Shown: positions 3,702 through 59,000, numbered from the stretch's first letter. The stretch is 64,000 nt of DNA from Patescibacteria group bacterium (GCA_041650915.1 JBAZKE010000001.1:43694-107693), one strand, 5' to 3'. Made by a program: numbers and translations. Notes: a model not told the origin generated them from the sequence alone.

Positions 3702-5008
3702 AAGCATGTATTAAAAAATTCGTCCCCAAGCCAGTATTACGCCGGTACCACTGGTCGCTTGCCCGGCTGGGGGCTCTCCTGTACCGGCATCCGTCCAGGA
3801 AGCTGGTCGTTATCGGGGTGACGGGCACCAAGGGGAAGTCAACAACCGCCGCGATGGCAGCGGCGGTGCTCGAGGGCGCGGGTAAGAGCGTCGGATTAAT
3901 CTCGACCATCAAGTTCAAAGTTGCGAAAAAGGAGTGGCCCAATGAGACAAAGCAGACAATGCCGGGCCGTTTTCGGCTGCAGCAGCTGCTCTCGCGGATG
4001 GTATCAGCGGGCTGCACGTATGCCGTCATCGAGACGTCTTCAGAGGGGGTAGCGCAGTACCGGCACCTCGGCATTGATTACGATGTCGCTGTTTTTACGA
4101 ACCTCTCGCCCGAGCACATTGAGGCTCATGGCAGCTACGAACAGTACCGCCACGCGAAGCTTATGCTGTTCCGGGGGCTGCAGGGGAGCTACCGGAAGTC
4201 GGTGGGCGGAGGGCAGGTGCAGAAAAAGATAATCGTGAATGCGGATGACGAAGAAGCTGAACGATTTCTGTCATGTTCATCTGACGAGGAGTGGGCGTAC
4301 GGTTTGAAATCAAGAGTTACGAGTACGCCGAATGCGGTTCGCGCTACCGGCATCGCTGAGAGCGCAGCCGGCGTTTCATTTGAAGCCGCTGGCAGGCTGT
4401 TTAATTTGCACCTGCTCGGCGAATTCAACGTCTATAACGCGCTCGCGGCACTCACCGTTGGCTTGTCTCAGGGCGTCTCCGCTGAGGTTTGCAAGCGGGC
4501 GCTCGAGAATATCCCCATGCTGCCGGGCCGGCTGGAAGAAATAAAGAATAACAGGGGATTCCGCGTATTTGTTGATTATGCGCATGAGCCGGCTTCTCTG
4601 GAAGCGGCGTACCGTACGCTCCGGCGCCTCGATCCGAGCCGGATGATCAGCGTGCTCGGTTCGCAGGGCGGGGGACGGGATAAAGCAAAGCGGCCGCTGC
4701 TCGGGCGGCTCGCGAGCCAGTATACGGATTTCGTCATCGTTACGAACGAGGATCCGTACGATGAAGACCCGCAGCGCATCATCGATGACGTGATGGCGGG
4801 CGCGCTTGATGCCGGCAAGGAGCCCGATCGCAATTGCTGGAGCGTCCTCGACCGGAGAGCAGCACTTGAAAAGGCGGTATCGCTTGCACGCGCGGGAGAT
4901 ATCGTTATCGTTACCGGCAAGGGGAGCGAAACGGTTATGGCTGTGGCAGGAGGCAGAAAAGTGCCCTGGGATGATCGGAAAGAGCTCCGCCAGCTCGTTA
5001 ATGGATAA
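3698..5008 (+). CDS. murE: Mur ligase family protein, MurE-type C-terminal region, lacking the usual N-terminal UDP-binding domain
   Basis: 436 aa. P-loop VIGVTGTKGKSTT at aa ~38. MurE-like C-terminus (DYAHEP..L.....L........VLGSQGGGRDKAKRPLLG.....D.VIVTNEDPYDEDP..I.DDV.AG....DR..A...A..AGDIVIVTGKG.E......DDR). DNPR is replaced by NEDP. Confidence 0.6.
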   Translation: MKACIKKFVPKPVLRRYHWSLARLGALLYRHPSRKLVVIGVTGTKGKSTTAAMAAAVLEGAGKSVGLISTIKFKVAKKEWPNETKQTMPGRFRLQQLLSRMVSAGCTYAVIETSSEGVAQYRHLGIDYDVAVFTNLSPEHIEAHGSYEQYRHAKLMLFRGLQGSYRKSVGGGQVQKKIIVNADDEEAERFLSCSSDEEWAYGLKSRVTSTPNAVRATGIAESAAGVSFEAAGRLFNLHLLGEFNVYNALAALTVGLSQGVSAEVCKRALENIPMLPGRLEEIKNNRGFRVFVDYAHEPASLEAAYRTLRRLDPSRMISVLGSQGGGRDKAKRPLLGRLASQYTDFVIVTNEDPYDEDPQRIIDDVMAGALDAGKEPDRNCWSVLDRRAALEKAVSLARAGDIVIVTGKGSETVMAVAGGRKVPWDDRKELRQLVNG

Positions 5009-7467
5009 TGTTTCAGATGATTGGATCGACTATGGATACCGTAGAGGGTACAGGGCAAGAGAGAACAGCGCCGAGGGTTGCCTGGAATGTGCCGGGCGGT
5101 ATTCTGTTTGGCGTCGTATTCATTTCAGGGGCGGCAGCGCTTATTTATGAAATGCTCTGGATACGCCTGCTCGGGCTCGTGTTCGGAGTGGGCAGCTTCG
5201 CGCTCGCAACGGCTTCCGCTGTTTTTTTGCTCGGCATCGGCATCGGGAGCGCTGTCTTCGGCCGGTATGCTGAAAAAGCGCGGGACGTCATGCGCTCCTA
5301 CGCTTTCCTTGAGGCCGGCATTGCAGCCACCTCCGCAGCCTCATTTTGCTTGCTACATTACACCTCGGTTTTTAACACGATTGCAGGGTACCTGTACGCC
5401 TCGTTTGACTTCTATATGCTCACGATCGCCCGTTTTTTTGTAGCGGTGTTGATTCTGCTCGTTCCTGCGATTGCGATCGGCGGTACGATCCCGCTGCTGT
5501 CGAAGTATTTATTAACGAGCAACCGTACGATCGGCTCGCGTTTCAGCTCGCTGTATTACTGGAATACGTTCGGGGCCGTATGCGGTGTGTTTTTGGCTGG
5601 TTTTGTGCTCATCCGCCAATTCGGCGTGCCCGTAACGTTTTGGATGGCTGCCGCGCTAAATGGCATTGCGGCGGCGATTGTGCTGTTTACGGGGCGGCGC
5701 AGTTCGCCGAAGCTGCCTGCTGCCATACCGCGGAGTACCGGAGAGCAGCCGGACGGAGTCCACGGGGAACGGTTGCTGCTGCCGATACTCTTCGCCACCG
5801 GCTTCATCACGCTCGGCTTTGAAATACTCTGGTTTCGGGTGCTGACGAATTTCGGGTCGGCAACAACGTTTTCGTCAACATTCGTGCTCGGCGGGTTCCT
5901 CGGCGGGCTCGCGCTCGGCGCGTTTTACGTTTCGAGGCGGATAGACCGGATGCAGCAGCCCGTACGCTCGTTCATTCGGTACAGCGTGCTTGCGGGCCTA
6001 GTCGGTGCGTGCATGATTTTTGCATTCAGCCAGCTCCATGACATATTACCGCCTACGTTTGGTACGTATGGGCAGCTCGTCATCGAGTCGATGCTCGGTT
6101 TTATCTTTTCGTTCGTCATCGCGGCAGTGCTCGGGACCCTGTTTCCGCTCGGCGTACGTCTGTATGCGGGAACCGTCAGTTCGATTGGCAGGAAGACCGG
6201 CAGCGCTTACTGGATTAATTCGCTCGGCACTATTGCGGGGAGTGTTATGACCGGTTTTGTGCTGATCCCGTTTTTGGGCGTTAAGTTGGCCGGGATTATT
6301 CTGGTTGCCCTGTGTTTTTGTGTTGGCGCCGTACTCCTCGTGTGCATGCACGTGCAGCGCAGTCGCGCCTGGACGTTTGTCGCCCTGTCGGTCATTGGTG
6401 CCGCATTCCTGCTTATTCTTTCGGGCAGTACGTTTCACCGGCACCCGATCGACGCTCAAGAGCTCTTTTATGCTGAGGGGCTCTCAGCGACGGTTACCGT
6501 GTATGCCGTTGAGAATGGGTTCCGCACCGATAAGTACCTCGAGATTGATGGCCAGGGCGTGGCGGGCACGTACGCGACCGGCGTCATCGACGCAAAAATT
6601 CTCGCGCACCTTCCCCTGCTCCTTACCGACTCTCCGCAGAAGGTCGCGACCGTCGGGTACGGTTCCGGTATCACGAGCTACAGCATGGCACTCCACGGCA
6701 CCGAAGTGTACGCGCTCGAAATTGAGCGGGAGGTGATCGAAGCCGCAGGCCAGTTTCGCGAGTATAACCATTCCGACGAAGCGAACGAGCTGCTTACCAT
6801 CATCGTCGACGACGCCAGAAACTACCTGCAGTATACGGAGGAGACGTTCGACGCGATTGTGACCGACGTTACCAACCTGAAGTACAAGAGCAATGCGTCG
6901 CTCTATACGGTGGACTACTTCCAGGTAATGCGTGATCGGCTCTCCCCGCACGGTGTCGCAGCGGCGTGGGTGCCGCTCGGGGGAGTGTCCCCGTCTGATC
7001 TAAAAATTCTAACTGCGAGTTTTCACGAAGTATTCCCGCACACAACCGTGTGGTACTTTAACCAGGATTGGACAGGCTTCCTCGTCTTTGTCGGCACCCC
7101 GGAAAAACTCGAGATTGACATTACGGAGCTCGAAGGCCGCTTTGAACTTGTGCGAGGGGACCTCGGGTCGATCGGGGTGGAGAGCGCGTATGAGCTCAGC
7201 GCTATGCTCCTGCTCGGGGAAGGCGACGTTGCGTCATACGTTGCCGGTGCGCCGCTGCATACTGACGACCGCCCGATTCTTGAGTTCTCAGACATCAAGT
7301 ACTACGCGCAGTACAGCCCCATGAGTAATTTGCGCGACCTCCTCCTCGTGCAGCAGGAAAATCTTTCCGGGTACTTTATCCTCAATGAGGAGCAGGATTC
7401 CGAGCTGCTGGATACGTTCTATGCGGGGAGAGAATTAATAAAGCACTTTATTGAGGAAAGCAGCTAG
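5008..7467 (+). CDS. polytopic membrane protein fused to spermidine/spermine-synthase-like (aminopropyltransferase-fold) domain
   Basis: 819 aa. About 450 aa with multiple hydrophobic helices, then a spermidine-synthase-like core (VATVGYGSGITSYSMALHGTEVYALEIEREVIEAAGQF...IVDDARNYL...FDAIVTDVTN), then a ~230-aa C-terminal extension. Confidence 0.65.
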   Translation: MFQMIGSTMDTVEGTGQERTAPRVAWNVPGGILFGVVFISGAAALIYEMLWIRLLGLVFGVGSFALATASAVFLLGIGIGSAVFGRYAEKARDVMRSYAFLEAGIAATSAASFCLLHYTSVFNTIAGYLYASFDFYMLTIARFFVAVLILLVPAIAIGGTIPLLSKYLLTSNRTIGSRFSSLYYWNTFGAVCGVFLAGFVLIRQFGVPVTFWMAAALNGIAAAIVLFTGRRSSPKLPAAIPRSTGEQPDGVHGERLLLPILFATGFITLGFEILWFRVLTNFGSATTFSSTFVLGGFLGGLALGAFYVSRRIDRMQQPVRSFIRYSVLAGLVGACMIFAFSQLHDILPPTFGTYGQLVIESMLGFIFSFVIAAVLGTLFPLGVRLYAGTVSSIGRKTGSAYWINSLGTIAGSVMTGFVLIPFLGVKLAGIILVALCFCVGAVLLVCMHVQRSRAWTFVALSVIGAAFLLILSGSTFHRHPIDAQELFYAEGLSATVTVYAVENGFRTDKYLEIDGQGVAGTYATGVIDAKILAHLPLLLTDSPQKVATVGYGSGITSYSMALHGTEVYALEIEREVIEAAGQFREYNHSDEANELLTIIVDDARNYLQYTEETFDAIVTDVTNLKYKSNASLYTVDYFQVMRDRLSPHGVAAAWVPLGGVSPSDLKILTASFHEVFPHTTVWYFNQDWTGFLVFVGTPEKLEIDITELEGRFELVRGDLGSIGVESAYELSAMLLLGEGDVASYVAGAPLHTDDRPILEFSDIKYYAQYSPMSNLRDLLLVQQENLSGYFILNEEQDSELLDTFYAGRELIKHFIEESS

Positions 7468-21247: not shown

Positions 21248-24200
21248 GTGGCGCTTTCAAAGCCATTCAAGAGAGCGGGTCAGTTCCTCGGGGGGAATAA
21301 GAATAAACAGGGAATTGACTTTAATGCACTGCCGGAGCTCCTCACCTTGGATCAGGTGAGTGAGATTCTTGGTGTCCATCCCAATACGCTCCGCAACTGG
21401 GATCGTTCCGGCAAGTTTGCCGCGCTCCGTGTCGGCCCGCGAAAAGACCGCCGCTACGAGAAAGAGGCTGTCTATAGGATGCACCTGGAGATGAAACCAG
21501 CGGTCCATGCAGCAGATCGGGAGGTCGATGGGCGCAAACCGGAGCCATCAGACAATAAGTACGTCATCCATCCCGGATTCTCGTGGAACAAGTTGCGGCT
21601 CTACTTCATGAGCCGCCGCTTTTCGATATTCGTATATTCGGTAGGGCTCGTCGCTTTCACCTTCGTGGTGATGCAGGTGACTTTTTTTGCGTACGTTTTC
21701 TTAGTCCGCGCCGAAGAGAAGCCTCCGCTCGTCGCCCGGCTCGCCCCATCGGCGGTGACCGGCTGGCAGGGTGCGGAAAAAGCGAAGACAATCGATGCAC
21801 TGGGCACGGCGCCGCTTGATGATTTCAGCATCTACAATTCAGCAGTTTTTTATAATGGTTCTGAGCCGATTGTTGTCGAGGAAGAGGAAGCCGCGGGCAC
21901 TGCCGAACCAGCGCAAGAGGCACCTGCCGAACCTGCGGTCGTGACGCCGCAGGACACCGAGCCCGAACCTGAAGAGCAAGCTCCTACGGAAGAGCCGCAA
22001 GCTCCTGCGGATGTTCCCGCAGAGGAGGCGGAAGAGCCGGTTGATGCATCCGCTATGCCTGCCGAAGAAGGCGAGGCGCCTGCTGTTGAGGAAGGGCTGC
22101 CTGCCGAAGCTGGCGTTGACGGGGGAGCGGCCACAGATGCCGCTGTTCCTGCAACGGAGGAGGCGGTGACCGATGAATCCGACGCGACGGTCGTGAAGGG
22201 CATGGTACTCGGCGAAGAGACGGATGCTGCAGACGAGCCGCTGTCGGAGCAGAATCCGGTGCTCGAGGCTCGGTCATTCGCGGTACCGGAAGCTATTCCC
22301 GCTGGCACGCAGATCAGTGATGCGCGGCTCCTGCTGTCTTTTGCCGCGGATACGTATCCGGACAATGAAGATGTGATTACCTTTTCCTACTCAGTGGACG
22401 GGAGCAGCTGGACCGTGCTCGATTCGCAGGGGCTCATTTCGGATATGAGTAACGGTACGCACGAGGGTTACTGGTCCTTCAGCATCCCCGAACTCCATGT
22501 CATCGATGAAATTGCAGATCTGATTGTACGGGTGGAATACCACGCAGTCGCACCGGTTGAAATGAGCACCGCGTACCTGGACGGCATTGAGCTCGACCTG
22601 ACGCTCGAGGAACCCGATGCGGTTGCCGCGGAGATTATCGAGAGCGTTGAGATAGAAAATGATGTGCTCGATACAGGCGAGGATCCCACGATCAACGTCC
22701 ATATCGAAGAAGAGTCGCCCCTCTCTTTCCTCGGCGCGTCATCACGGCAGCGTACGGTGAAAGACGTCCGGCTGCAGGATCCGAACGGGCGGGAGATTGA
22801 AGCGGTATACACGATTGCCGATGAACAGCAGGGCAGCGTAAAGACGGCAGCGTACACTTTTGATACGGGGGCATTTTCCAAGCCGGGCAAGTATACCGTT
22901 ACCTTGGAGGTTGAACAAAACGGTACGGTCGAGGAGGTTGAACAGGATTTCACCTGGGGCGTTTTGGCCATTAATCCCGATTACGCCATACAGAAGCTCG
23001 GGCAGGAAACGCAGTTTTCCATCGGCGTTCTGGACGATTCAGGCGATATCGTGTGCGACGCGGAAGTCACGCTGGAAATAGTAGATCCCGCCGGCCATGC
23101 CGTTACCCAGTCGACCGTTGACGGCAGGATTACCGTGAGTGACAGCTGCCTGACCAAAGGCGTGTACCAAGGCCCGGATTATTATTCGACCTACACGCCG
23201 CAGATGCCGGGCACGTACCAGCTGCACCTTACCGCAACGCACTACAACGGCACCCGCACCCTGGACAGCGAGTTTGCGGTCGAGGCGAATCCGCGCTTTA
23301 CCGTAAAGCGCACCGGGCCGACCCGCATCTTCCCGTACGTGTACCAGCCGATGCTTCTGGAAGTAACGGCATATGAAGATTTTACCGGCGAGATAACGGA
23401 GATCGTGCCGGGCGTATTTGAAATTGAGGTGCACAATGACGGCGCGATCCGGCCGTTTGACCAGGGAGGGCATATCGACCACCAGATCGTTTGGAAAGCT
23501 TCGTTGAAGGCCGGAGAATCAGCCACGTTCGGGTATTCGTTCAAAACGCCGGAAGAAAGCCCGGCACTGTATATGGCTGGTCCGGCGGCTGTGGGTACCG
23601 TGTGGGACGAAGGCCGGCAGTGGCAGATGGCGATTGACGCGACGTATGTATATCTGCTTTCATCATCAAACAGCGCTCCGGCCGGCTGGTCGTACGTGGA
23701 CACGTACAACAGCAAGTATGTCCGGGGAGCGTCTAGCTTCAGCGGAACGGGCGGCGGCGCTGCAACCCATACGCATACATACAGCGAATCAGTAACTGAT
23801 TCGAGCGTCAATACGGCTGGAATTGTATGCTCACGGCGATGTTTAAGCGTAGCGGGTTTGGGCCATACCCATACGTCAACCGGCAGCACGATAGGGCCTG
23901 AAAACAATGATCCGGCGCATTATACGTACCGGCTCTGGAAGTACGATACAGCTGACGCAACGCCCATGACGATCCCCCAGAATGCGTTTATCTTTTGGAA
24001 AGATAATAGCGCGGATCCATCATCGCCGTGGACCCGTTTTTCCAGCGGCGATGACCGCATGGTCAAGCTTGCGGATAGCCACACCACGGGCGGTTCGACT
24101 ACCCATAAGCATACCATCACCTGGGGCAGCCTCAATGCGACTACGGGCACAAATATTGAAGGTATTCTTGGTGACATATACACCATGACGTCGGCAACTC

Positions 24201-50383: not shown

Positions 50384-50393
50384 TGGTTTCCTC

Positions 50394-50422
50394 TTGTTTT
50401 TACCGACGAACTGTGTTATAAT
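50394..50422 (+). promoter_or_regulatory. candidate promoter for the 345-aa gene / downstream operon (TTGTTT-17-TGtTATAAT)
   Basis: Perfect -10 TATAAT at 50417-50422 with extended TGt and a weak -35, in the 155-nt AT-rich gap after the giant gene. Confidence 0.35.
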
Positions 50423-50538
50423 AGGTAATGTAAAGTAGAAAGCGGCTGTTTATATTTTTTTAAAGAGGAAAAGATTTTTCATTTTTGTGTTGGCATCTTT
50501 CGACATATAAAATTATTTATTAAAGTTACGAAAAGCCT

Positions 50539-51576
50539 ATGAAAGTACTAAAAAACACTAGTGTGGTGGTGTTGATGGCGGCATTTATCGCTGTCATGCT
50601 CTTTCCGGTCCAGGCAGCATACGCGGGTACCCTCACCACACCGCGCGATTACCTGAACAGGGTTAAGGAGAGTTTAACCTCCGGTGTGCAGCACGAGGTG
50701 TTCTTCACTACCGAGGGGGCAGTTTCAGGAGGAGCAGGGAACAACGAGATTACGCTCGTCTTCCCGGATGCGGATGACGGCGGCTGGTGCGCCACCGCAG
50801 CAGCCGACATGACGGTCACCGGCATTACGGATCCGACAGGCGGTTCCGAGAGCGCAACGTCGCTCCCCGGCACACTCGTCGGTACGTGTACGCAGGGTGC
50901 AGGCGCTTCGAGCTACGACACCTTCACAATCACCGGGGTCAATGATCTCAGCTCGGCTACGAAGTACGGCGTCCGTATCGCGGATGGCACAACGGCAGAG
51001 CTCGGTACGCCGGCTGCGTCGACGACGGGTCTCATCACCATTACCACAAACAACGGCTCAACTGACGTTGACTCTGCATTTACGAGCGTCGATATCATCA
51101 GCGATGACCAGGTGGCTGTTTCCGCCGATGTCCCATCGAGCATTACTTTCACGCTCAGCGATACCACGATCGACCTTGGCACGCTCTCAACGGGCGCGGT
51201 CAGCACTTCGTCACATACCGTCCAGACCGTCACCAATGCGTCGAGCGGCTACACGACGCTCGTCTACGACGACGGCAACCTCAGGAAGGGTTCCGACGAT
51301 ATCAACGACGTGGCTGACGGTGCCGTGACGGCAGGTTCGGAAGAGTACGGCCTCTCGACCACGGACAGCAGCCAGGACATTGCCCAGGATGCGGCCTGCG
51401 GCAGCGCTCCGTACACCGCATCCGCACTCACCGCGACCCAGCAGTCAGTCGCAGGAGCTGCCTCCGGTCCGGTGGATGAAACGATCACGGTCTGCTATGC
51501 AGCCTCGATCAGCGCAAGCACGGTAGCGGGCGCATACGCGCATACGGTTACATACGTAACGGTCGGGTTATTCTAA
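50539..51576 (+). CDS. secreted 345-aa protein sharing the C-terminal ~140-aa domain of the giant protein (possible divergent WxL-like cell-surface domain)
   Basis: N-terminal signal peptide (MKVLKNTSVVVLMAAFIAVMLFPVQAAYAG). The C-terminal 140 aa are near-identical to the giant protein's C-terminus (IDLGTLSTGAVSTSSHTV...TVTYVTVGLF). Confidence 0.8.
   Translation: MKVLKNTSVVVLMAAFIAVMLFPVQAAYAGTLTTPRDYLNRVKESLTSGVQHEVFFTTEGAVSGGAGNNEITLVFPDADDGGWCATAAADMTVTGITDPTGGSESATSLPGTLVGTCTQGAGASSYDTFTITGVNDLSSATKYGVRIADGTTAELGTPAASTTGLITITTNNGSTDVDSAFTSVDIISDDQVAVSADVPSSITFTLSDTTIDLGTLSTGAVSTSSHTVQTVTNASSGYTTLVYDDGNLRKGSDDINDVADGAVTAGSEEYGLSTTDSSQDIAQDAACGSAPYTASALTATQQSVAGAASGPVDETITVCYAASISASTVAGAYAHTVTYVTVGLF
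51244..51510 (+). repeat. 267-nt perfect direct repeat, copy 2 (3' part of the 345-aa gene)
   Basis: See copy 1. Confidence 0.9.
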
Positions 51577-51610
51577 TAACAGTTACTACCTCCTTCGCGG
51601 GCAATTTCAT

Positions 51611-52558
51611 ATGGAGGGAGGGCAGGTAATAACAAATAATTTTCATACGACTATGAATTGGAGGACAACAATAACCCTATCGGCAGCCGTGCTCGTTGCG
51701 GCATTCATCGTGCCAATAGGCGCCGATGCGCTGACGCTTCAGCCGACGTTTCAGGAAATAACCCTGACGCCCGGCAAAACGACAACGACAGCCGTTGAGC
51801 TCGAGAACGAAACGCAGGAATCTATCGAGCTCACCTCAGAGGTAGCAACATTCTCTGCAAAGGATGAGACGGGCGAACCCGAGTTCAACTTTGATGCTCC
51901 CGAGACGGGGATTGTGGCGTGGACAACTGCGGAATCGGGCCCCTTCACGCTCGAGGCAGGCGCCACGGAAACGGTGATCGTCACGTTCGAGACGCCTCTC
52001 GATGCGGAACCAGGCGGCCACTACGTTGCGGTCTTCTTCAACCAACTCCTCGAGGCTGAGGAGCCCGGGCAGGTCAATATAGAGTCGAAGCTCGGCACCC
52101 TCTTCCTTGCAACGGTGACCGGTACGTACGCAGAGAAGGGCTCAATTGCAGAATTCAAAACCGCGGGTACGGCAACGAGCTATTCCGAGGGACCGGTGGA
52201 CTTTACGTTCCGGTACCAAAATACAGGCGACGTTCACCTCAAGCCGACTGGCACTATTACCGTCAAGAATATGCTCGGGGGCACAGTCGCTACGATACCA
52301 GTCAATCGTGAGGGCGGCGCAACGCTTCCCGGCAGCATTCGGGAGTATGACGTTGCGAGCTGGGCAGACCTCGGGAACGGATTCGGCAAGTATACGGTCA
52401 CGATTGACCTCTCCGCAGGGACAGTTTCGAACAGCATGACGCTGAGCTTCTGGGTGTTCACGACGGTCGGTACGGTTATTGCCGCCGCCATCGCCCTCGT
52501 TATCATTGTGCTCATCATTGTGCTGCTCCGGGCTACGACAAAGAAGAAGCCAGATTAG
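51611..52558 (+). CDS. tail-anchored cell-surface protein, paralog A (signal peptide + beta-rich ectodomain + C-terminal TM and basic tail)
   Basis: 315-aa ORF. The start is more likely ATG 51653 (MNWRTTITLSAAVLVAAFIVPIGADA signal peptide). Paralogous to the next gene (shared ...FSAKDETGEPEFNFDA...EPGGHYVAVFF...). C-terminal hydrophobic helix then KKKPD. Confidence 0.8.
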   Translation: MEGGQVITNNFHTTMNWRTTITLSAAVLVAAFIVPIGADALTLQPTFQEITLTPGKTTTTAVELENETQESIELTSEVATFSAKDETGEPEFNFDAPETGIVAWTTAESGPFTLEAGATETVIVTFETPLDAEPGGHYVAVFFNQLLEAEEPGQVNIESKLGTLFLATVTGTYAEKGSIAEFKTAGTATSYSEGPVDFTFRYQNTGDVHLKPTGTITVKNMLGGTVATIPVNREGGATLPGSIREYDVASWADLGNGFGKYTVTIDLSAGTVSNSMTLSFWVFTTVGTVIAAAIALVIIVLIIVLLRATTKKKPD

Positions 52559-52612
52559 GCACGCATTAACAATGGCGGTCGGCAACCGTATGGTCGCCTG
52601 ATCGCCGAGCCT

Positions 52613-53608
52613 ATGAAAAAGAAGCTACTATACATACTAGCATTCACCCTCGCGGTACTGTTTACCGCCAGTACGTTTCCCGCGCAGCGTGCGGACGCAA
52701 TCACCCTCATCCCGCCGATTCTTGAATTTGGCCTCATCCCCGGCGAGCCATCGAAGATAGCGATCAAGCTCTTCAATGAATCATCAAGTACCGTAGAGCT
52801 GTATACGGAAGCGCACAACTTCAGTGCCAAGGATGATACCGGACAGCCGCAGTTTGATTTCGAGAGCGATGCGGATGGCATAAGCTCCTGGATCGACATG
52901 GAGGAGGGCCCAATCATCATCGAGCCGAACGGCCGGTATGAGGTGCCGGTGACGATCAATCCGCCGTCAGAGGCGGATCCAGGCGGGCACTACGCAGCCG
53001 TTTTTTTCTCGACGACTCCACCCGAAGAGGGCCAGGTCAGGATTGCCTCGAAAGTCGGGACGCTCATCCTGGCAAAGGTTGCCGGTGACGTAGAGGAGGA
53101 CGGTTCGATCGTAGAGTTCGACGTTGTCGACGGCAAACGGTTTTTCAATCGCCTCCCCGCTGCATTTGAAGCGCGGTTTGAAAATACCGGCAATGTGCAC
53201 CTCCGGCCGGCTGGGACGATCGTTATCGAAAATTTTTTCGGACAGCAGACCGATGAGGTCGATTTCAATCCGAGCGGCGGTGCAACGCTTCCGGATACGA
53301 CGCGCCGGTATGAAGCAATATGGGAAAAGGGGCAGGTCGGCGATACTGCAGGCAACGTGTGGACGAGTTTTTGGAAAGAATACGTAAACGAGAAGAATAA
53401 TTTTGCGATCGGCAGGTATACGGCGGCGATCTCTATTGAAGCGGGCACTGACAACGGCGTTACGGATGCCGCTTCAGTCTCGTTTTGGATCTTTCCGTGG
53501 CGTGTCGTACTCGTTTGGGCGGTAGCCGCTGCACTCGCCGTTATACTGCTCATCTACTTCCTCAGGCGCTACAACGCTTGGATCGTCAAGAAAGCCCGGG
53601 GAAAATAA
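52613..53608 (+). CDS. tail-anchored cell-surface protein, paralog B
   Basis: 331 aa. Signal peptide MKKKLLYILAFTLAVLFTASTFPAQRADA. Shares FSAKDDTGQPQFDFES...DPGGHYAAVFF with paralog A. C-terminal TM then RRYNAWIVKKARGK. Confidence 0.8.
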   Translation: MKKKLLYILAFTLAVLFTASTFPAQRADAITLIPPILEFGLIPGEPSKIAIKLFNESSSTVELYTEAHNFSAKDDTGQPQFDFESDADGISSWIDMEEGPIIIEPNGRYEVPVTINPPSEADPGGHYAAVFFSTTPPEEGQVRIASKVGTLILAKVAGDVEEDGSIVEFDVVDGKRFFNRLPAAFEARFENTGNVHLRPAGTIVIENFFGQQTDEVDFNPSGGATLPDTTRRYEAIWEKGQVGDTAGNVWTSFWKEYVNEKNNFAIGRYTAAISIEAGTDNGVTDAASVSFWIFPWRVVLVWAVAAALAVILLIYFLRRYNAWIVKKARGK

Positions 53609-53621
53609 TACCCATACGAAC

Positions 53622-54521
53622 GTGCGTCGTTTTTTGAAACTGCGGACAGTATTAATCTGGGGTATCCCGTTGATCGTGCTGATCGCGGGATATTCTGTTG
53701 TGTGCGCGCAAGTTTCACGCCAGGTTACGGTAACGGCGACTGTTCCGGAGCAGCCGCCCCTCGAGCCGCCCGATACGACCGTTCAGTTCAGCGGCATAGC
53801 GTACCCATCCTCTACGGTAACGATTACGCAGGATTCGGTGCCGATATCCATCATTACCGCCACAGCCCAGGCGGGTTTTCAGGTATCCATTATTGTCGAT
53901 CCGGGCACCCATACGTTTACAGTGTACGGCATCGACGTGGACGGGGTTCAGGGGCGCGTATCCAGCTTTACGCTGCTCCTTTCGGAGGGCAGCACGACTA
54001 CCATCAGCGGAATTTTTCTCGGCCCGACGATTACGACTGACCAGACGACCATTACTTCGGGAGAGACCGTGACGCTCTCCGGTACGACGGCACCGGACAG
54101 CGAGGTGAACGTTACCCTGACTTCGCCTGCCGTCGGTGCGGCAGCCGGAGAGGCGAAGATTGCCGTGCACATTGCGAGCGCAGACGGTAACGGCCGCTGG
54201 CTGCAGCTCTTCAATGCTGATGACCTCGTCGAGGGCAGCCACTCCGCAAAGGCGCAGGCGACCGATCCGGTTACGAGTTCGGTTTCCGAGTTTAGCAATG
54301 AGGTTGTTTTTGAGGTGGTCGCAGCTGAAGAGCCTGATGCGTGTGCCGGCATGGCCCCCGGCGATATCAACTGTGACGGTTCAGTCAACTTAGTCGACTT
54401 CAGCATCCTGCTCTTCTACTGGAACGCGGCAAATCCGGCAAATCCGAGAGCTGATATCAATAGTGACGGTACCGTCGATATAATCGACTTCAGCATTATG
54501 CTCTACTATTGGACGGGATAA
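53622..54521 (+). CDS. secreted protein with Ig-like repeats and C-terminal dockerin (two Ca-binding EF-hand-like repeats)
   Basis: 299 aa from a GTG start. Signal peptide with a ...VVCAQ site. The C-terminus has two dockerin repeats, DINCDGSVNLVDFSILLFYW and DINSDGTVDIIDFSIMLYYW, with D/N at loop positions 1, 3, 5 and 12. Confidence 0.7.
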   Translation: MRRFLKLRTVLIWGIPLIVLIAGYSVVCAQVSRQVTVTATVPEQPPLEPPDTTVQFSGIAYPSSTVTITQDSVPISIITATAQAGFQVSIIVDPGTHTFTVYGIDVDGVQGRVSSFTLLLSEGSTTTISGIFLGPTITTDQTTITSGETVTLSGTTAPDSEVNVTLTSPAVGAAAGEAKIAVHIASADGNGRWLQLFNADDLVEGSHSAKAQATDPVTSSVSEFSNEVVFEVVAAEEPDACAGMAPGDINCDGSVNLVDFSILLFYWNAANPANPRADINSDGTVDIIDFSIMLYYWTG

Positions 54522-54525
54522 AACC

Positions 54526-55668
54526 ATGCATTTTTTACGGCATACAATTTTTCTATCAGTTTCAGTGCTGCTCGGAGCGGTTCTATTCGGGCAGTCTGCT
54601 GACGCTGCCGTGATTTCGTTCGATCCGTCGGGCGGGGAGCTTTCGCTGAATGAGGAATTTCTGGTAACCCTGCACCTCAACAGCGAACAGGAGGTTATCA
54701 ATGCAGTCGACATTACGCTCACGTATCCTGCTTCCGCACTCGAGGTCATTGATGTTTCTCGGGGAGGTTCTTTCCTGACGCTGTGGGTCGAGGATCCCGT
54801 CGTCGACGATACGGCGGGTACGATAACGTTTGCGGGGGGCATTCCGAATGGCAGCCTCGTCGCGGATGGCGTTATTGCGACTGTGATTTTCAGGTCGAAT
54901 GCGCCGGGAGGGGTAGAGATCGGCGTTGATACGGAAGCGACCAAGGTTTTGCTCAACGATGGGAGGGGAACCCAAGCGGCGCTGTCGGCGGAGCCAAGCG
55001 TTTTTACCATATCGTCGTTGTCGTTTGTGGCGATTACCTCACCGACGCATCCGGATGAGAATGCCTGGTACCGCGAGAATGATTTTACTGCAGAGTGGGC
55101 AACCACTGCCGGCGCTGAATACAGCTATACGGTGAGCGCCCGATCCGATACGGTGCCCGATGACAGCAGGGACATTACCGACGGCAGCGCTACCTTTTTC
55201 AGTTTGCCCGACGGCATCCACTATTTTATTCTGAAGGAGCGGCTTCCCCACAAGGATTGGCGCATCATCGGCAAGCGGCGCGTCATGGTTGATTCGACTC
55301 CGCCGCTGCCGTTCACCGCGGAAATCGTAAAGGAGCGCACGCTGTACGGCGGCAAGTCGATCGTCACCTTCACTGCCCAGGACTTCACATCCGGCATCGC
55401 ACGGTATGATATTGCTGAGAATGATGCGATAACGCAGGACGTAACCTCGCCGTACATACTCAAGGACCAGTCACTCAGCCAGGCGGTTATCCTCTGGGCC
55501 GTTGACCGCGCGGGCAATACAACAGAGTTCTCATTTGGCGGGCACGGCAGCACGCCGGGGGGAAGCTCTGGCGATCCTATTGATATTCTCGTATACGTAT
55601 TTGCCGGCTGCATGTTTCTGCTCCTCGTGCTGGTCGCGGTACGATGGCGAATAAAAAAGAAAGCGTAA
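54526..55668 (+). CDS. cohesin-domain protein with Ig/FN3-like second domain and C-terminal TM anchor
   Basis: 380 aa. Signal peptide. N-terminal ~140-aa cohesin-like module (VINAVDITLTYPASALEVIDVSRG...GTITFAGG...DGVIATVIFRS). Middle domain paralogous to the next protein. C-terminal hydrophobic helix + RIKKKA. Confidence 0.7.
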   Translation: MHFLRHTIFLSVSVLLGAVLFGQSADAAVISFDPSGGELSLNEEFLVTLHLNSEQEVINAVDITLTYPASALEVIDVSRGGSFLTLWVEDPVVDDTAGTITFAGGIPNGSLVADGVIATVIFRSNAPGGVEIGVDTEATKVLLNDGRGTQAALSAEPSVFTISSLSFVAITSPTHPDENAWYRENDFTAEWATTAGAEYSYTVSARSDTVPDDSRDITDGSATFFSLPDGIHYFILKERLPHKDWRIIGKRRVMVDSTPPLPFTAEIVKERTLYGGKSIVTFTAQDFTSGIARYDIAENDAITQDVTSPYILKDQSLSQAVILWAVDRAGNTTEFSFGGHGSTPGGSSGDPIDILVYVFAGCMFLLLVLVAVRWRIKKKA

Positions 55669-55677
55669 CATGGCACT

Positions 55678-58188
55678 ATGGTACGACGGCTCCTCGCAAT
55701 AAGCTTCATCTCCGCTATACTGCTGGTAGCCGTACCTGCAGCCGCCGATGCAGCATCGCTCTACCTCAGCCCATCGAGCGGAACGTACACGGTCGGCGGC
55801 AGCTTTAGCGTTACCGTCGCGGTAGATACCGGCGGCGTCGCGATCAATTCGGCGCAGGCGACTGTTTCGTTCCCGAATGATATCCTCGAGATTACCAGCG
55901 TCGGGCAAGCTGGCATCTTTACGCTGTGGCCGATCAGCCCGACGTACTCGAATGCGACCGGCACCGTATCGTTCGCAGGAGGCGTTCCGAATCCGGGCTA
56001 TACGGGTTCTGGCGGCACGATTATTACGGTTACGTTTGCAACAAAGGTAGCAGGCACTGCCACCGTCACGATGGGCTCGGCGAGCATTCTCGCAAACGAC
56101 GGGCTCGGGACAAATATCCTGACCGGCGCAAGCGGCGGGACCTATACGGTCAGAGCAGCAGCCGTGGAACCAGAGCCGGAACCTGAACCAGAGCCAGATT
56201 TACAGTTCCCTGAAGCGGTGACGATCACGTCATCCTCGCATCCGGAACAGTCACTGTGGTACTCAAACCGGGATCCGCAGTTCGCGTGGAACCGCCAGGA
56301 TGGCGTTGTCGGATTCAGCTATGCGCTCGATGATCAGGATGGCGGTACGGTTGACCAAGTCCGAGATACGACCGATACGACGGGCAGCTTCGCAGGAATT
56401 GGCGACGGCATTTGGTACTTTCACGTACGTGCGCAAAATAATGACGGATGGGGCCCCGTTGCACAGTATAAAATTCTTGTCGACGGCACTCCGCCGCTCC
56501 CGTTTGAGATTGAATTGCTCGACGGCAAGCAGACGGAGGATAGGACGCCCCAGGTGAGTTTTGAAGCCACCGATGAGCATTCGGGCGTGCACCACTATGT
56601 TTTAGTCATCAATAACGAACCGCCGATCAGCATCGATGTCGGCGCCACGGCACCGTACACTTTGCCGGAACTCGCCGAAGGCAAGCACGGCATAACGGTG
56701 TACGCATACGATTTTGCGTCAAACAGTACCGCGGCATTTGCTACCTTCACGATCGGGGAGCCTCCCGGTCCGGTTGTTGTTGACGATGGCGAGGAGGAGG
56801 CGGAGACCCCCGCTGCAGTTCGGGCTATCGACGATGCGTTAAGGTCGATTGAAGAGGCGCTCCCGCAATCAGTGAAGGAGCTTATTGGCAATATTGGAGA
56901 TGTCATCGGCAATTTACGGGACAATGCTACCGTCAGTACCATCGTCAATGACTTCGTCGAACCGGCGGTTGTCACGACGGCTATCGTTACTTCTGCCGGC
57001 CTCATCGCGACCGCGTCTGCATTCCAGATTACCAATCTCGCGTACCTCTTCCTCCGGTTCAGCTACTTCTGGGTTGCTCCGGTACACCTCGGCCGGCGCC
57101 GCAGGAGGCCGTGGGGGATCGTATTCGACAGTACGACGGGAATGCCGGTCGCCCGCGCTATCGTGCGGATATTTTCCCGGGAGTTTAATAAGCTCAAGGA
57201 GAGCCAAATTACAGACGAAGAGGGCCGCTTTGGGTTTCTTATCGAGCCGGATCAGTATTACCTTGCCGTTTCCCGCTCCGGCTATATTTTTCCTTCCCAT
57301 CTCCTGCGGAGCGTGGCAATCAGCCAGTATGAGGACATATACCGGGGCGACACCATCACGGTCACCAAGCAAAATATGGGTGGTCTCTCGATCAACGTGC
57401 CGATCGATCCGAACGTACGGACTGTTTCGCAGACACGTTTGCTGTGGCTGCGGGTGATCAACTTCCTCGGCTTTATGCTGGAGAAGTTCAGCTTACCGCT
57501 GCTTATTGCCGGTACGCTGCTGAGCTGGGTCACCCTCGTGCTGGAACCGAAGACGAGCAACTATGTCATTCTCCTCCTGTACGGTATTTTTATCTTCCTC
57601 AAGTATATGGTGCAGCAGCTGCTCGAGCGCTCATGGGGTTTTGTTGAGGATGACACCACCGGCGATCCCGTCGATCTCGCCATTATCCGCATCTACAATA
57701 CGGCATCCGGCCTCCTCATCGGTACCCGGGTCACGAACCAGCGGGGACAGTTTACCGCGCTCGTGCCTCCGGGGCAGTACTACATCGTAGCCGTGAAACC
57801 GGGGTACGAGGTGTTCAGGAGCAAACCGATGATGGTATCGAAGCGCAAAGGCCTCATCAGGCTCAGGGTTAAGCTCAAGCCGCAGACGAAGAAGCCGGAC
57901 ACGACCGTGGCGCTTGAGGAGGTCGTTACGCTCGAGGCGGCTGATACGACCGTATCCGAAGCGCCTGTATCACCGAAGAAACGGGGGAAGGGGCAGCAGC
58001 CTGTACAGGCGGAGGCAGAGGAACAGCCCGCAAAACCCTCCCGGAGCATGAAGAAAGAAACGGCTGCTCGGAGGGGAGCCCAGCCGCTGAAGAAACCGAC
58101 TAAGCGCCCGCCGGCGGGCAGCCCGCCGGGCACTCCAAAAACGCCGTCGGTTGACGACCTCGGTAATTTGGATAGCCAGGGCTCTTAG
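55678..58188 (+). CDS. cohesin-domain membrane protein with two CarboxypepD_reg-like (prealbumin-fold) domains interleaved with TM helices and a Lys-rich C-terminal tail
   Basis: 836 aa. Signal peptide. Cohesin-like module (VAINSAQATVSFPNDILEITSVGQAG...GTVSFAGG). Ig-like domain paralogous to the 380-aa protein. Two repeats of W G(I/F)V(F/E)D..TG.PV..A(I)(V/I)RI(F/Y)...G.....T...G.F......Y. Several hydrophobic helices. Basic/Pro-rich tail. Confidence 0.7.
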   Translation: MVRRLLAISFISAILLVAVPAAADAASLYLSPSSGTYTVGGSFSVTVAVDTGGVAINSAQATVSFPNDILEITSVGQAGIFTLWPISPTYSNATGTVSFAGGVPNPGYTGSGGTIITVTFATKVAGTATVTMGSASILANDGLGTNILTGASGGTYTVRAAAVEPEPEPEPEPDLQFPEAVTITSSSHPEQSLWYSNRDPQFAWNRQDGVVGFSYALDDQDGGTVDQVRDTTDTTGSFAGIGDGIWYFHVRAQNNDGWGPVAQYKILVDGTPPLPFEIELLDGKQTEDRTPQVSFEATDEHSGVHHYVLVINNEPPISIDVGATAPYTLPELAEGKHGITVYAYDFASNSTAAFATFTIGEPPGPVVVDDGEEEAETPAAVRAIDDALRSIEEALPQSVKELIGNIGDVIGNLRDNATVSTIVNDFVEPAVVTTAIVTSAGLIATASAFQITNLAYLFLRFSYFWVAPVHLGRRRRRPWGIVFDSTTGMPVARAIVRIFSREFNKLKESQITDEEGRFGFLIEPDQYYLAVSRSGYIFPSHLLRSVAISQYEDIYRGDTITVTKQNMGGLSINVPIDPNVRTVSQTRLLWLRVINFLGFMLEKFSLPLLIAGTLLSWVTLVLEPKTSNYVILLLYGIFIFLKYMVQQLLERSWGFVEDDTTGDPVDLAIIRIYNTASGLLIGTRVTNQRGQFTALVPPGQYYIVAVKPGYEVFRSKPMMVSKRKGLIRLRVKLKPQTKKPDTTVALEEVVTLEAADTTVSEAPVSPKKRGKGQQPVQAEAEEQPAKPSRSMKKETAARRGAQPLKKPTKRPPAGSPPGTPKTPSVDDLGNLDSQGS

Positions 58189-59000
58189 CGCGTACGGTTC
58201 ACTGCTTCGTTTGGGATGCCGCTGATTTTTGGTTTCACCGGCTGCCCGAGCCAGCGCTCGATGAGTTGTGTGAGGTGCGGTGGAATGTCGCTGAACAGGA
58301 ACTGGTGCTGGTTGCTTCTCGTGAGTCGCGCCTCAGTGTCAGGATGCTGCCTGAGGTATTCTCGGAGGAGGAGAATGGTTTGCTCTGCCGGATCAACGAG
58401 CGTTACGCGCTTGCCGATTTTTTGCTGGATTACGTCGCGGAGGAGCGGGTAGTGCGTACAGCCGAGGATGAGCGTGTCAATCTGGTCGTTTTTCATTGGA
58501 CGGAGGTACTTCTGGGCGATGAGCTTGGCAGCGGGTTTTTTCTCCCAGCCTTCCTCGGCGAGCGGCACGAAGAGCGGGCATGCTTTGCTGACGATGGTGT
58601 AGCCGTTTTTTTTGTGCTTGATCGTATCTTCGTAGATGCGGCTCTCGATTGTAGCGCGGGTTCCGATGACGCCGATCCGCTTGTTTCTCGTAACTTCGGT
58701 GCCGCGTTTAACGGCAGGAGTGATGACTTCAAAGATCGGGATGGTAGGGTACCGCTTTTTAAGCTCGGCAGCAGCGACCGCGGAAGCGGTATTGCACGCG
58801 ACGACAACCACCGTCGCGCCGTGCTTGAGCAGCAGCTCCGTATCCTCGACTGCGTACCTGACGATGGTGTCCCTGCTCTTGTTGCCGTACGGGGTGCGTG
58901 CCGTATCGCCGAAGTATAGAATTTGGTATTCGGGGAGCAGCCTGAGCACCTCTCGGGCTACGGTCAATCCGCCGATTCCTGAATCAAAAATTCCGATCAT
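58185..59000 (-). CDS. murI: glutamate racemase
   Basis: 271 aa. MIGIFDSGIGGLTV..., a conserved Cys/Thr active-site environment (VVACNTAS, ILGCTHYPLL). Converges on the 836-aa gene with a 4-nt stop overlap. Confidence 0.9.
   Translation of the reverse strand: MIGIFDSGIGGLTVAREVLRLLPEYQILYFGDTARTPYGNKSRDTIVRYAVEDTELLLKHGATVVVVACNTASAVAAAELKKRYPTIPIFEVITPAVKRGTEVTRNKRIGVIGTRATIESRIYEDTIKHKKNGYTIVSKACPLFVPLAEEGWEKKPAAKLIAQKYLRPMKNDQIDTLILGCTHYPLLRDVIQQKIGKRVTLVDPAEQTILLLREYLRQHPDTEARLTRSNQHQFLFSDIPPHLTQLIERWLGQPVKPKISGIPNEAVNRTR

Follow-up and report, generated by a model that had tools for sequence, protein, structure and literature searches.

In chaperone-usher P pili and in the sortase-assembled pili of Gram-positive bacteria, the last subunit to join the fibre (PapH and the basal pilins, respectively) blocks its extension and fixes it to the envelope. 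PapH remains at the outer-membrane usher, and the basal pilins are covalently attached to peptidoglycan by sortase. Here we describe a locus in which this task would fall to a dockerin and its cohesins, modules whose contacts in cellulosomes have a high mechanical strength. The locus lies in a 64-kb stretch of DNA from a Patescibacteria group bacterium (GCA_041650915.1, JBAZKE010000001.1: 43694-107693), which was analysed as a whole and is called the window below. Three consecutive genes on the + strand, at window positions 53622-58188, encode a 299-amino-acid (aa) protein that ends in a dockerin and two membrane proteins, of 380 and 836 aa, that begin with cohesin-family domains.

The closest described system is the Pam pilus of the candidate phyla radiation (CPR) bacterium Candidatus Mycosynbacter amalyticus, a donor-strand-exchange pilus that is assembled by chaperones and is free of an usher (Troman et al. 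2026, bioRxiv 10.64898/2026.03.03.709456). Its pilins, PamA, PamB and PamE, build long homopolymers, and its tip subunit PamT, of ~240 aa, has an acceptor domain only. PamC and PamD are membrane-anchored, PapD-like chaperones that aid assembly and differ from each other by one inserted hairpin. PamR, the terminator and anchor, has an extra N-terminal strand, two RbmA-like fibronectin type III (FnIII) domains, for which RbmA is the defining analogy, and a C-terminal transmembrane helix (10.64898/2026.03.03.709456). The function of PamR as the anchor of the Pam pilus is a proposal based on prediction alone.

In the window the dockerin and cohesin genes form the 3' end of a seven-gene cassette, in the order giant protein, pilin, two membrane-anchored chaperone-like paralogs, dockerin protein and two cohesin proteins. 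The last three genes probably make up the end of a Pam-type pilus operon that serves membrane anchoring, dockerin and cohesin forming a plug and socket at the base of the pilus. The features of the cassette are as follows, with the basis of each assignment in brackets.

21248-50383, + strand: giant 9,711-aa surface protein, proposed pilus tip adhesin (open reading frame (ORF); HTH_17, transmembrane segment, C-terminal acceptor domain)
50539-51576, + strand: 345-aa Pam-type pilin (signal peptide, N-terminal β-sandwich, linker/donor strand, C-terminal acceptor domain)
51611-52558, + strand: 315-aa chaperone-like protein with PamC/PamD-like architecture (paralog alignment, hydropathy)
52613-53608, + strand: 331-aa chaperone-like paralog (paralog alignment, hydropathy)
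53622-54521, + strand: 299-aa dockerin protein, proposed pilus terminator/adaptor (Pfam, AlphaFold2 (AF2), Foldseek, 55-homolog alignment)
53721-53744, + strand: donor-strand motif QVTVTATV, aa 34-41 of the 299-aa protein (consensus common with the pilin linker)
54357-54518, + strand: dockerin module, aa 246-299 (Pfam, homolog alignment, AF2, solved dockerins)
54526-55668, + strand: 380-aa membrane anchor 1 (Pfam Cohesin, AF2, Foldseek)
55678-58188, + strand: 836-aa membrane anchor 2 (paralogy to the 380-aa protein, family hidden Markov model (HMM), CarboxypepD_reg, hydropathy)

Dockerin and cohesin modules

The 299-aa protein consists of a signal peptide, a free N-terminal strand that is its putative donor strand, a Pro-rich linker, two immunoglobulin (Ig)/FnIII-like domains (residues 53-132 and 149-232) and a type I dockerin. 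The signal peptide is its sole hydrophobic segment, and the C-terminus is formed by the dockerin, with no transmembrane helix. The dockerin matches Pfam Dockerin_1 (PF00404) over residues 246-293 with an E value of 6.4e-09 and 36.3 bits, the gathering cut-off being 22.9 bits. Loop 1 (D248-I-N250-C-D252-G-S-V-N256-L-V-D259) is followed by a helix at residues 257-265, and loop 2 (D278-I-N280-S-D282-G-T-V-D286-I-I-D289) by a helix at residues 287-297. Both Ca loops have D or N at positions 1, 3, 5, 9 and 12, and these residues were found to be invariant or nearly so in an alignment of 55 homologs. The segment also aligns with the solved type I dockerins 5nrm_B (E 1.5e-05), 2y3n_B and 4fl4_A, the loop residues being preserved in the alignments to 5nrm_B and 2y3n_B. 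The NCBIfam model of a "GC-type dockerin" gives a weak match to the protein (E 1.5e-4).

A dual binding mode is known for type I dockerins. The two repeats of the present dockerin are identical at 13 of 22 positions, which would be compatible with such a mode. Two cysteines, C241 and C251, flank loop 1 (nt 54342-54374), C251 lying within the loop sequence D-I-N-C-D-G. Both are nearly invariant in the 55 homologs, and their conservation suggests a disulfide that may fasten the dockerin to the linker before it.

The 380-aa protein has a signal peptide, a cohesin at residues 28-163 (nt 54607-55014), Ig-like domains at residues 187-255 and 264-337, and a C-terminal transmembrane helix at residues 351-379 (nt 55576-55662), located by AF2 and hydropathy. 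Pfam Cohesin (PF00963) matches the protein with an E value of 7.9e-06 and 26.6 bits, above the gathering cut-off of 24.1 bits. The AF2 model, which has a mean predicted local distance difference test (pLDDT) score of 93.3, shows the signal helix, a β-sandwich over residues 28-163, the two Ig-like domains and the C-terminal transmembrane helix. The top Foldseek matches of the sandwich are type I cohesins, with probability 1.0, TM-scores of 0.68-0.80 and root-mean-square deviations (rmsd) of 2.4-3.7 Å. The best superpositions are onto 6kgf_C (TM-score 0.75, rmsd 2.4 Å) and the Archaeoglobus fulgidus module 2xdh (TM-score 0.76). From the Pfam match and the model, the N-terminal domain of the 380-aa protein is a true cohesin.

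The 836-aa protein starts with a signal peptide, a cohesin-family domain at residues ~23-160 (nt 55744-56157), two Ig-like domains and an acidic linker. Its C-terminal half is a multi-pass membrane region that includes two CarboxypepD_reg domains (60 bits) and is followed by a basic tail; hydropathy places hydrophobic segments at residues 426-449, 593-624 and 627-649. When the N-terminal domain alone was searched against Pfam and the PDB, no cohesin match was found. Nevertheless, the first ~365 residues of the protein are paralogous to the 380-aa protein over all three domains (30% identity, E 6e-38), and the protein matches the family HMM "coh" with an E value of 1e-30. Among the N-terminal domains of the 836-aa family, 13 of 18 match Pfam Cohesin, the best at 2.9e-10, and a profile of this family matches solved cohesins weakly (E 0.002-0.16). 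The domain is a putative cohesin, supported at the level of the family. A conserved motif, S-x-T-H-P-x-E-x-x-W-Y, opens the Ig-like domain next to the cohesin (aa ~170-255 in the 380-aa protein) in the two cohesin proteins as well as in their homologs; its W181 is invariant in 53 sequences.

These results bear on an earlier note on the same DNA, which had proposed a canonical two-repeat dockerin at the C-terminus of the 299-aa protein, a cohesin-like β-sandwich at the start of both larger proteins, and membrane anchoring of the latter two. The dockerin is confirmed, with all of its Ca-coordinating residues present, as are the sandwich of the 380-aa protein and the membrane segments of both anchors. 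For the 836-aa protein a cohesin sandwich is made likely by paralogy and the matches of its family, and not by any direct match of its own.

The putative terminator and the fibre genes

The mature N-terminus of the 299-aa protein starts QVSRQVTVTATVPEQPP. In the AF2 model (pLDDT 90), residues 31-52 form an unpaired coil ahead of the two Ig/FnIII domains and the dockerin. Nothing in the N-terminal part of the family is more conserved than the strand QVTVTATV within this coil, V41 being invariant and A39 nearly so in the 55 homologs. The consensus V-x-V-[ST]-A-T-V is common to the N-terminus of the dockerin proteins and to the linker of the pilins, and the per-position composition of the motif is alike in both. 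Counted as [VIL]x[VIL][ST][AG]x[VI], the motif stands directly before the C-terminal domain (CTD) in 35 of 43 pilins and, in 34 of 41 short dockerin proteins, N-terminal to the first Ig domain. Of the 20 giant or tip candidates (large CTD-bearing proteins) 2 contain it, and it is absent from 7,960 residues of housekeeping proteins.

At the dockerin position, seven related loci encode a fusion of a pilin N-terminal domain (NTD), a linker strand to which QVTVTATV is homologous, the Ig-Ig unit and a dockerin; in this pilin a docking unit has taken the place of the acceptor domain. The 299-aa protein likewise has no acceptor domain. A subunit that donates a strand and accepts none is a chain terminator by construction. 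Foldseek matches of the 299-aa protein include tandem FnIII structures such as RbmA of Vibrio cholerae (4kkq, 4be5 and 5g50, E ~1e-5). By analogy, the 299-aa protein is best read as a PamR-like, chain-terminating base subunit that would have a dockerin in place of the transmembrane helix.

Judged by their sequences, the pilins of the cassette are members of the Pam family: 30 of 32 pilins from related or syntenic loci match the NCBIfam model NF058581 (CPR_Pam_pilin_C), with a best E value of 1.7e-23. The 345-aa pilin matches the PamT model at 1e-3. Its linker, DDQVAVSADVP at residues ~189-199, lies between the HMM matches of the NTD and the CTD, the latter spanning residues ~200-345 at the sequence level.

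The last 146 residues of the giant protein are a Pam-pilin acceptor domain, 86% identical to the CTD of the pilin. This similarity begins right after the linker position, and no donor strand precedes it; the family HMM matches with an E value of 6.9e-65. Given their identity, the two acceptor domains should accept the same strands. Neither a dockerin nor a cohesin was found in the giant protein when 600-aa chunks of it were searched with Pfam and the family HMMs. At its N-terminus there is a helix-turn-helix (HTH) domain of the HTH_17/MerR-like type (residues 31-80; Pfam 28.3 vs 27 bits) and a transmembrane segment at residues 124-155 that ends in LVRA, followed by EE, a possible signal-peptidase site (window 21248-21720, aa 1-157). 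A faint HTH_17 match is also present in the Kerfeldbacteria ortholog. Such an odd domain on an exported giant adhesin might be a released regulator or part of an unusually long signal-anchor.

The 86% identity is that between nt 49943-50380 of the giant gene and nt 51136-51573 of the pilin gene in this genome. In a related locus (L005), the CTD of the giant protein matches the pilin-CTD HMM of the window family far more weakly (2e-19) than does the pilin of L005 itself (2e-53). This pattern in the sequences suggests that a recent homogenisation, by gene conversion, may have occurred between the adjacent giant and pilin genes.

The two chaperone-like proteins are 40% identical, the 331-aa one having an insertion of ~20 residues. 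Each has a signal peptide, a β-rich ectodomain of ~250 aa and a C-terminal transmembrane helix (residues 276-313 in the 315-aa protein). Pfam gave weak fn3_5 and WxLIP_PGBD matches, and an NCBIfam scan of eight chaperone-like proteins, each taken singly, returned noise only. We infer by analogy with PamC and PamD that the pair are PapD-like chaperones.

Conservation of the cassette and its interpretation

For the conservation survey, one genome per species was scanned and the 80 best loci were inspected. A relative of the dockerin protein is encoded in at least 582 species genomes, which by database labels are mostly Patescibacteria; some labels of third-party annotation (TPA) metagenome-assembled genomes (MAGs) are evidently placeholders. 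A cohesin gene lies directly 3' of the dockerin gene, within 700 bp, in 79 of the 80 best loci, and the one exception ends at a contig edge. Two to five cohesin genes are present in 72 loci, a chaperone-like gene stands upstream, just before the dockerin gene, in 61, and a Pam pilin CTD is detectable in 46. A complete Ca. Kerfeldbacteria chromosome and other MAGs have all seven genes in this order, and the last of them again encodes a cohesin protein with a multi-pass membrane region. In the Kerfeldbacteria-like genomes the identities are 41-49% for the cohesin protein and 64-77% for the dockerin protein. The predicted tethering of the dockerin protein at the cell surface by membrane cohesins is strongly supported by this synteny.

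In more distant lineages, other N-terminal modules (fn3, DUF4215 or Bact_surface_Ig-like) and a poly-Gly linker precede the Ig-Ig-dockerin unit. The cassette thus appears to be a general surface-anchoring device of the CPR, which the lineage of the window uses for a Pam-type fibre.

Many Paceibacteria-type dockerin proteins, the long ones of loci L048, L055, L062, L065, L068, L070, L079 and others, share an N-terminal module of ~90 aa that has no Pfam match. Its consensus is roughly F-x-S-x-N-[YF]-K-[VI]-L-D-P-V ... S-S-S-T-N-F-x-L ... I-G-T-S ... G-F-L-Y-F-P, and an fn3 domain and then a long poly-Gly linker come after it. Another locus (L007, 13500-14255, GCA_041736805.1) encodes a 251-aa protein in which a cohesin (Pfam 29.2 bits) is combined with a dockerin (28.2 bits), as in an adaptor scaffoldin; further cohesin and dockerin genes adjoin it. 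From these sequences, some CPR lineages may have multi-tier cohesin-dockerin chains.

Assembly of the fibre is envisaged as follows. All components would be exported via Sec. The giant adhesin, which offers only a C-terminal acceptor domain, would be placed at the distal tip and would nucleate the fibre. The 345-aa pilins would then polymerise, each placing its linker strand in the acceptor domain of the subunit before it, with the aid of the two membrane-anchored chaperone-like paralogs. The 299-aa protein would give its QVTVTATV strand to the last acceptor domain and cap the proximal end, and polymerisation would end there because the protein has no acceptor domain of its own. Its dockerin would bind, with Ca2+, to the cohesin of the single-pass 380-aa protein, of the multi-pass 836-aa protein or of both, holding the fibre non-covalently on the cytoplasmic membrane. 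The dockerin-cohesin pair would thus stand in for the transmembrane helix that PamR bears in Ca. Mycosynbacter amalyticus.

The spacing of the genes is in agreement with their forming one operon. The gaps are 13 nt before the 299-aa gene, 4 nt between the 299-aa and 380-aa genes, and 9 nt between the 380-aa and 836-aa genes. Promoter and terminator scans of 50200-58700 did not exceed what shuffled sequence would give, and the short gaps were empty of signals; co-transcription is therefore deduced from the spacing and the conserved gene order. The stop of the 836-aa gene overlaps by 4 nt (58185-58188) that of a convergent murI-like gene (58185-59000, - strand), so that there is no space for a terminator between the converging operons.

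Several observations weigh against a Pam-type pilus that is anchored in this way. The 345-aa pilin scores 44.1 bits (E 2.2e-11) against NF058581, below the 55-bit cut-off of that model. The chaperone-like pair gave no match to the PapD/FimC families or to solved proteins in a PDB-sequence profile search, Pfam and NCBIfam. The N-terminal HTH and transmembrane segment complicate the placing of the giant protein as a free tip if they are not cleaved off. The RbmA-type matches of the 299-aa protein stand among many generic tandem-Ig matches. No within-locus covariation was found between the terminator strand and the pilin linker (4.74 vs 4.47 identities of 7), the motif being too conserved. Many Paceibacteria-type loci have a dockerin protein with other N-terminal modules, and no pilin was detected in them, so that pilus anchoring is not the sole use of the cassette. 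Finally, the cohesin-dockerin contact and the insertion of the strand are themselves inferences.

Genuine cohesin and dockerin modules that are always adjacent would also be expected of a stand-alone minimal scaffoldin or display system, in which the cohesins hold the 299-aa Ig-domain protein at the surface and the adjacency of the fibre genes reflects co-regulation only; the unrelated modules that other CPR lineages put on the Ig-Ig-dockerin unit, with no pilin detected nearby, fit such a system as well. However, the window-type protein has no functional module beyond its two Ig domains, its highly conserved N-terminal strand has the same consensus as the pilin donor strand, orthologs fused to the pilin NTD exist, and the position of the dockerin gene between the chaperone-like and cohesin genes is fixed. 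We consider a display system of this kind unlikely. The donor strand at the mature N-terminus and the Pam operon context argue instead for an anchor at the base of a pilus.

The near identity of the two acceptor domains, both of which should take the terminator strand, speaks for a different arrangement, in which the dockerin protein plugs its strand directly into the CTD of the giant protein and docks the latter to the membrane, the pilin forming no long shaft or serving as an optional spacer. The giant protein could by itself span a long distance, and the operon has one pilin gene. Nevertheless, the Pam pilins of M. amalyticus do form long homopolymers, and the pilin of the window retains both a donor strand and an acceptor domain, the hallmark of a polymerising subunit. 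A fibre without a pilin shaft seems distinctly doubtful; it would be a sub-variant of the plug-and-socket anchor and would leave the role of the cohesins and dockerin unchanged.

A cellulosome-like complex, whose cohesins would gather dockerin-bearing hydrolases from elsewhere in the genome for the degradation of polysaccharides or host cell walls, is highly improbable, and a cellulosome or scaffoldin system was rejected because no enzymes or carbohydrate-binding modules (CBMs) are present. In its favour, it is the type I modules of cellulosomes that these cohesins and dockerins most resemble, and the 64 kb inspected belong to a contig of at least 680 kb in which more dockerin proteins may exist. 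Against it, catalytic and carbohydrate-binding domains are absent from all proteins of the cassette, including the giant one, a single cohesin is present in each of the cohesin proteins, the one dockerin of each cassette is paired with cohesins in 79 of 80 loci, and no second dockerin was found in the window.

The plug-and-socket anchor differs from the interpretation given in the earlier note, which had taken the three genes for a minimal scaffoldin that tethers a secreted dockerin protein, co-transcribed, with spacings of 5-14 nt, with an adjoining paralog pair downstream of fibre genes. The tether itself is backed by synteny and the dockerin is genuine; no cellulosome-type scaffoldin is present, and the reading was too narrow. 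The fibre genes and the paralog pair do adjoin the set. Their nature as a Pam-type donor-strand pilus operon was missed, as was the presence of the pilins' donor strand at the N-terminal end of the mature 299-aa protein. The spacings of 5-14 nt correspond to the 13, 4 and 9 nt measured here.

The NCBI annotation describes the 299-aa protein as dockerin type I repeat-containing (MFA5134213.1), the 380-aa protein as cohesin domain-containing (MFA5134214.1) and the 836-aa protein as carboxypeptidase regulatory-like domain-containing (MFA5134215.1); the three genes directly 5' of the 299-aa gene are labelled "hypothetical". The 299-aa ORF has a GTG start, and the NCBI version is 295 aa long. The remaining genes of the window are those of an ordinary chromosome (metK, Mur ligase, rpoB, rpoC, ftsK, recA, plsX, murI, gpmI and phosphomannomutase (PMM)). 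An 819-aa ORF at 5008-7467 is an unusual fusion of a weak MFS-like membrane region (aa 33-384) and a spermidine synthase-like methyltransferase (aa 530-651). About 4 kb downstream of the cassette, Kerfeldbacteria-like relatives encode a second very large protein of 2,187-3,314 aa (L003, 17630-21155; L004, 17866-21128; L005, 17434-21140), with an N-terminal T4SS_pilin domain (PF18895) and Big_5/Big_7 repeats. It is preceded by a conserved block of signal peptidase (S26), hisS, HIT, S21 and YqeY, where the window has murI, gpmI, a HAD hydrolase and PMM.

Comparison with known systems

The domain annotations of the dockerin and cohesin proteins are already public. What is new is best described as a Pam-type pilus terminator in which the transmembrane helix has been swapped for a dockerin, together with dedicated membrane cohesins. 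No prior description was found in a search for literature linking cohesins or dockerins with the CPR, Patescibacteria, pili or donor-strand assembly, and cohesin and dockerin are unmentioned in the paper on the Pam pilus (10.64898/2026.03.03.709456).

The attachment of the ultrasmall CPR/Patescibacteria to their hosts is a central question, and from this locus it would seem that much of the radiation anchors its fibres in another way than through PamR. It is quite possible, although we put this forward tentatively, that cohesin-dockerin pairs are a general modular socket for the surface appendages of Patescibacteria, into which a terminator or other cargo plugs non-covalently and in a Ca-dependent manner. 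If this were true, there would be a third way of fixing a pilus, beside the outer-membrane usher and the sortase-made linkage to peptidoglycan. Such a socket would allow fibres with giant adhesins at their tips to be mounted, exchanged or released, and non-cellulosomal cohesin-dockerin modules would have a defined biological role in hundreds of episymbiont species. The plug-and-socket model offers non-cellulosomal cohesin-dockerin modules a concrete function that can be tested, and it gives the 9,711-residue giant protein a place in a defined route of assembly. In vitro tests, with no need to culture the organism, can be made on the components, which are small, soluble modules.

The cassette resembles the Pam pilus in several respects. 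The CTD of the window pilin probably falls in the same family, NF058581, and a conserved donor strand likewise links the NTD of this pilin to its CTD. The chaperone-like paralogs, again two in number and membrane-anchored, one of them with an insertion, would correspond to PamC and PamD, and the giant protein would be a tip subunit with an acceptor domain and without a donor strand, as with PamT. The 299-aa protein resembles PamR in its N-terminal strand and two FnIII-like, RbmA-like domains, a likeness seen in its strand motif, its AF2 model and the structure matches. However, the 299-aa terminator ends in a dockerin and not in a transmembrane helix, the helices being carried by two dedicated cohesin proteins encoded after it. 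In addition, the tip would be a protein of 9,711 aa, against ~240 aa for PamT, and the lineage is Kerfeldbacteria-like, and neither Saccharimonadia nor Microgenomatia.

The cellulosomal type I pairs and anchoring scaffoldins used for comparison were OlpA/OlpC of Clostridium thermocellum (3ul4, 4dh2) and ScaB-Cel5 of A. cellulolyticus (5nrm). As in these, the dockerin has two repeats, each a Ca loop and a helix, with near two-fold symmetry, the cohesin is a β-sandwich (TM-score 0.7-0.8), and the cohesin is borne by the cell-bound protein and the dockerin by its partner. In contrast, the set in the window is without enzymes, CBMs or S-layer homology (SLH) domains, it is anchored by transmembrane helices, its cargo would be a pilus subunit, and the sequence identity of its cohesin to cellulosomal cohesins is low (13-20%). 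The non-cellulosomal modules of A. fulgidus (2xdh) and of the C. perfringens toxin complexes (2vo8, 2ozn), of which 2xdh and 2vo8 are among the best structural matches of the 380-aa cohesin, likewise serve protein assembly outside cellulose degradation. Their cargo consists of glycosidases or is undefined, whereas in the window the operon context points to a donor-strand fibre. Compared with PapH and the basal pilins, the link at the base of this fibre would be non-covalent and Ca-dependent, and it would be made to proteins of the cytoplasmic membrane.

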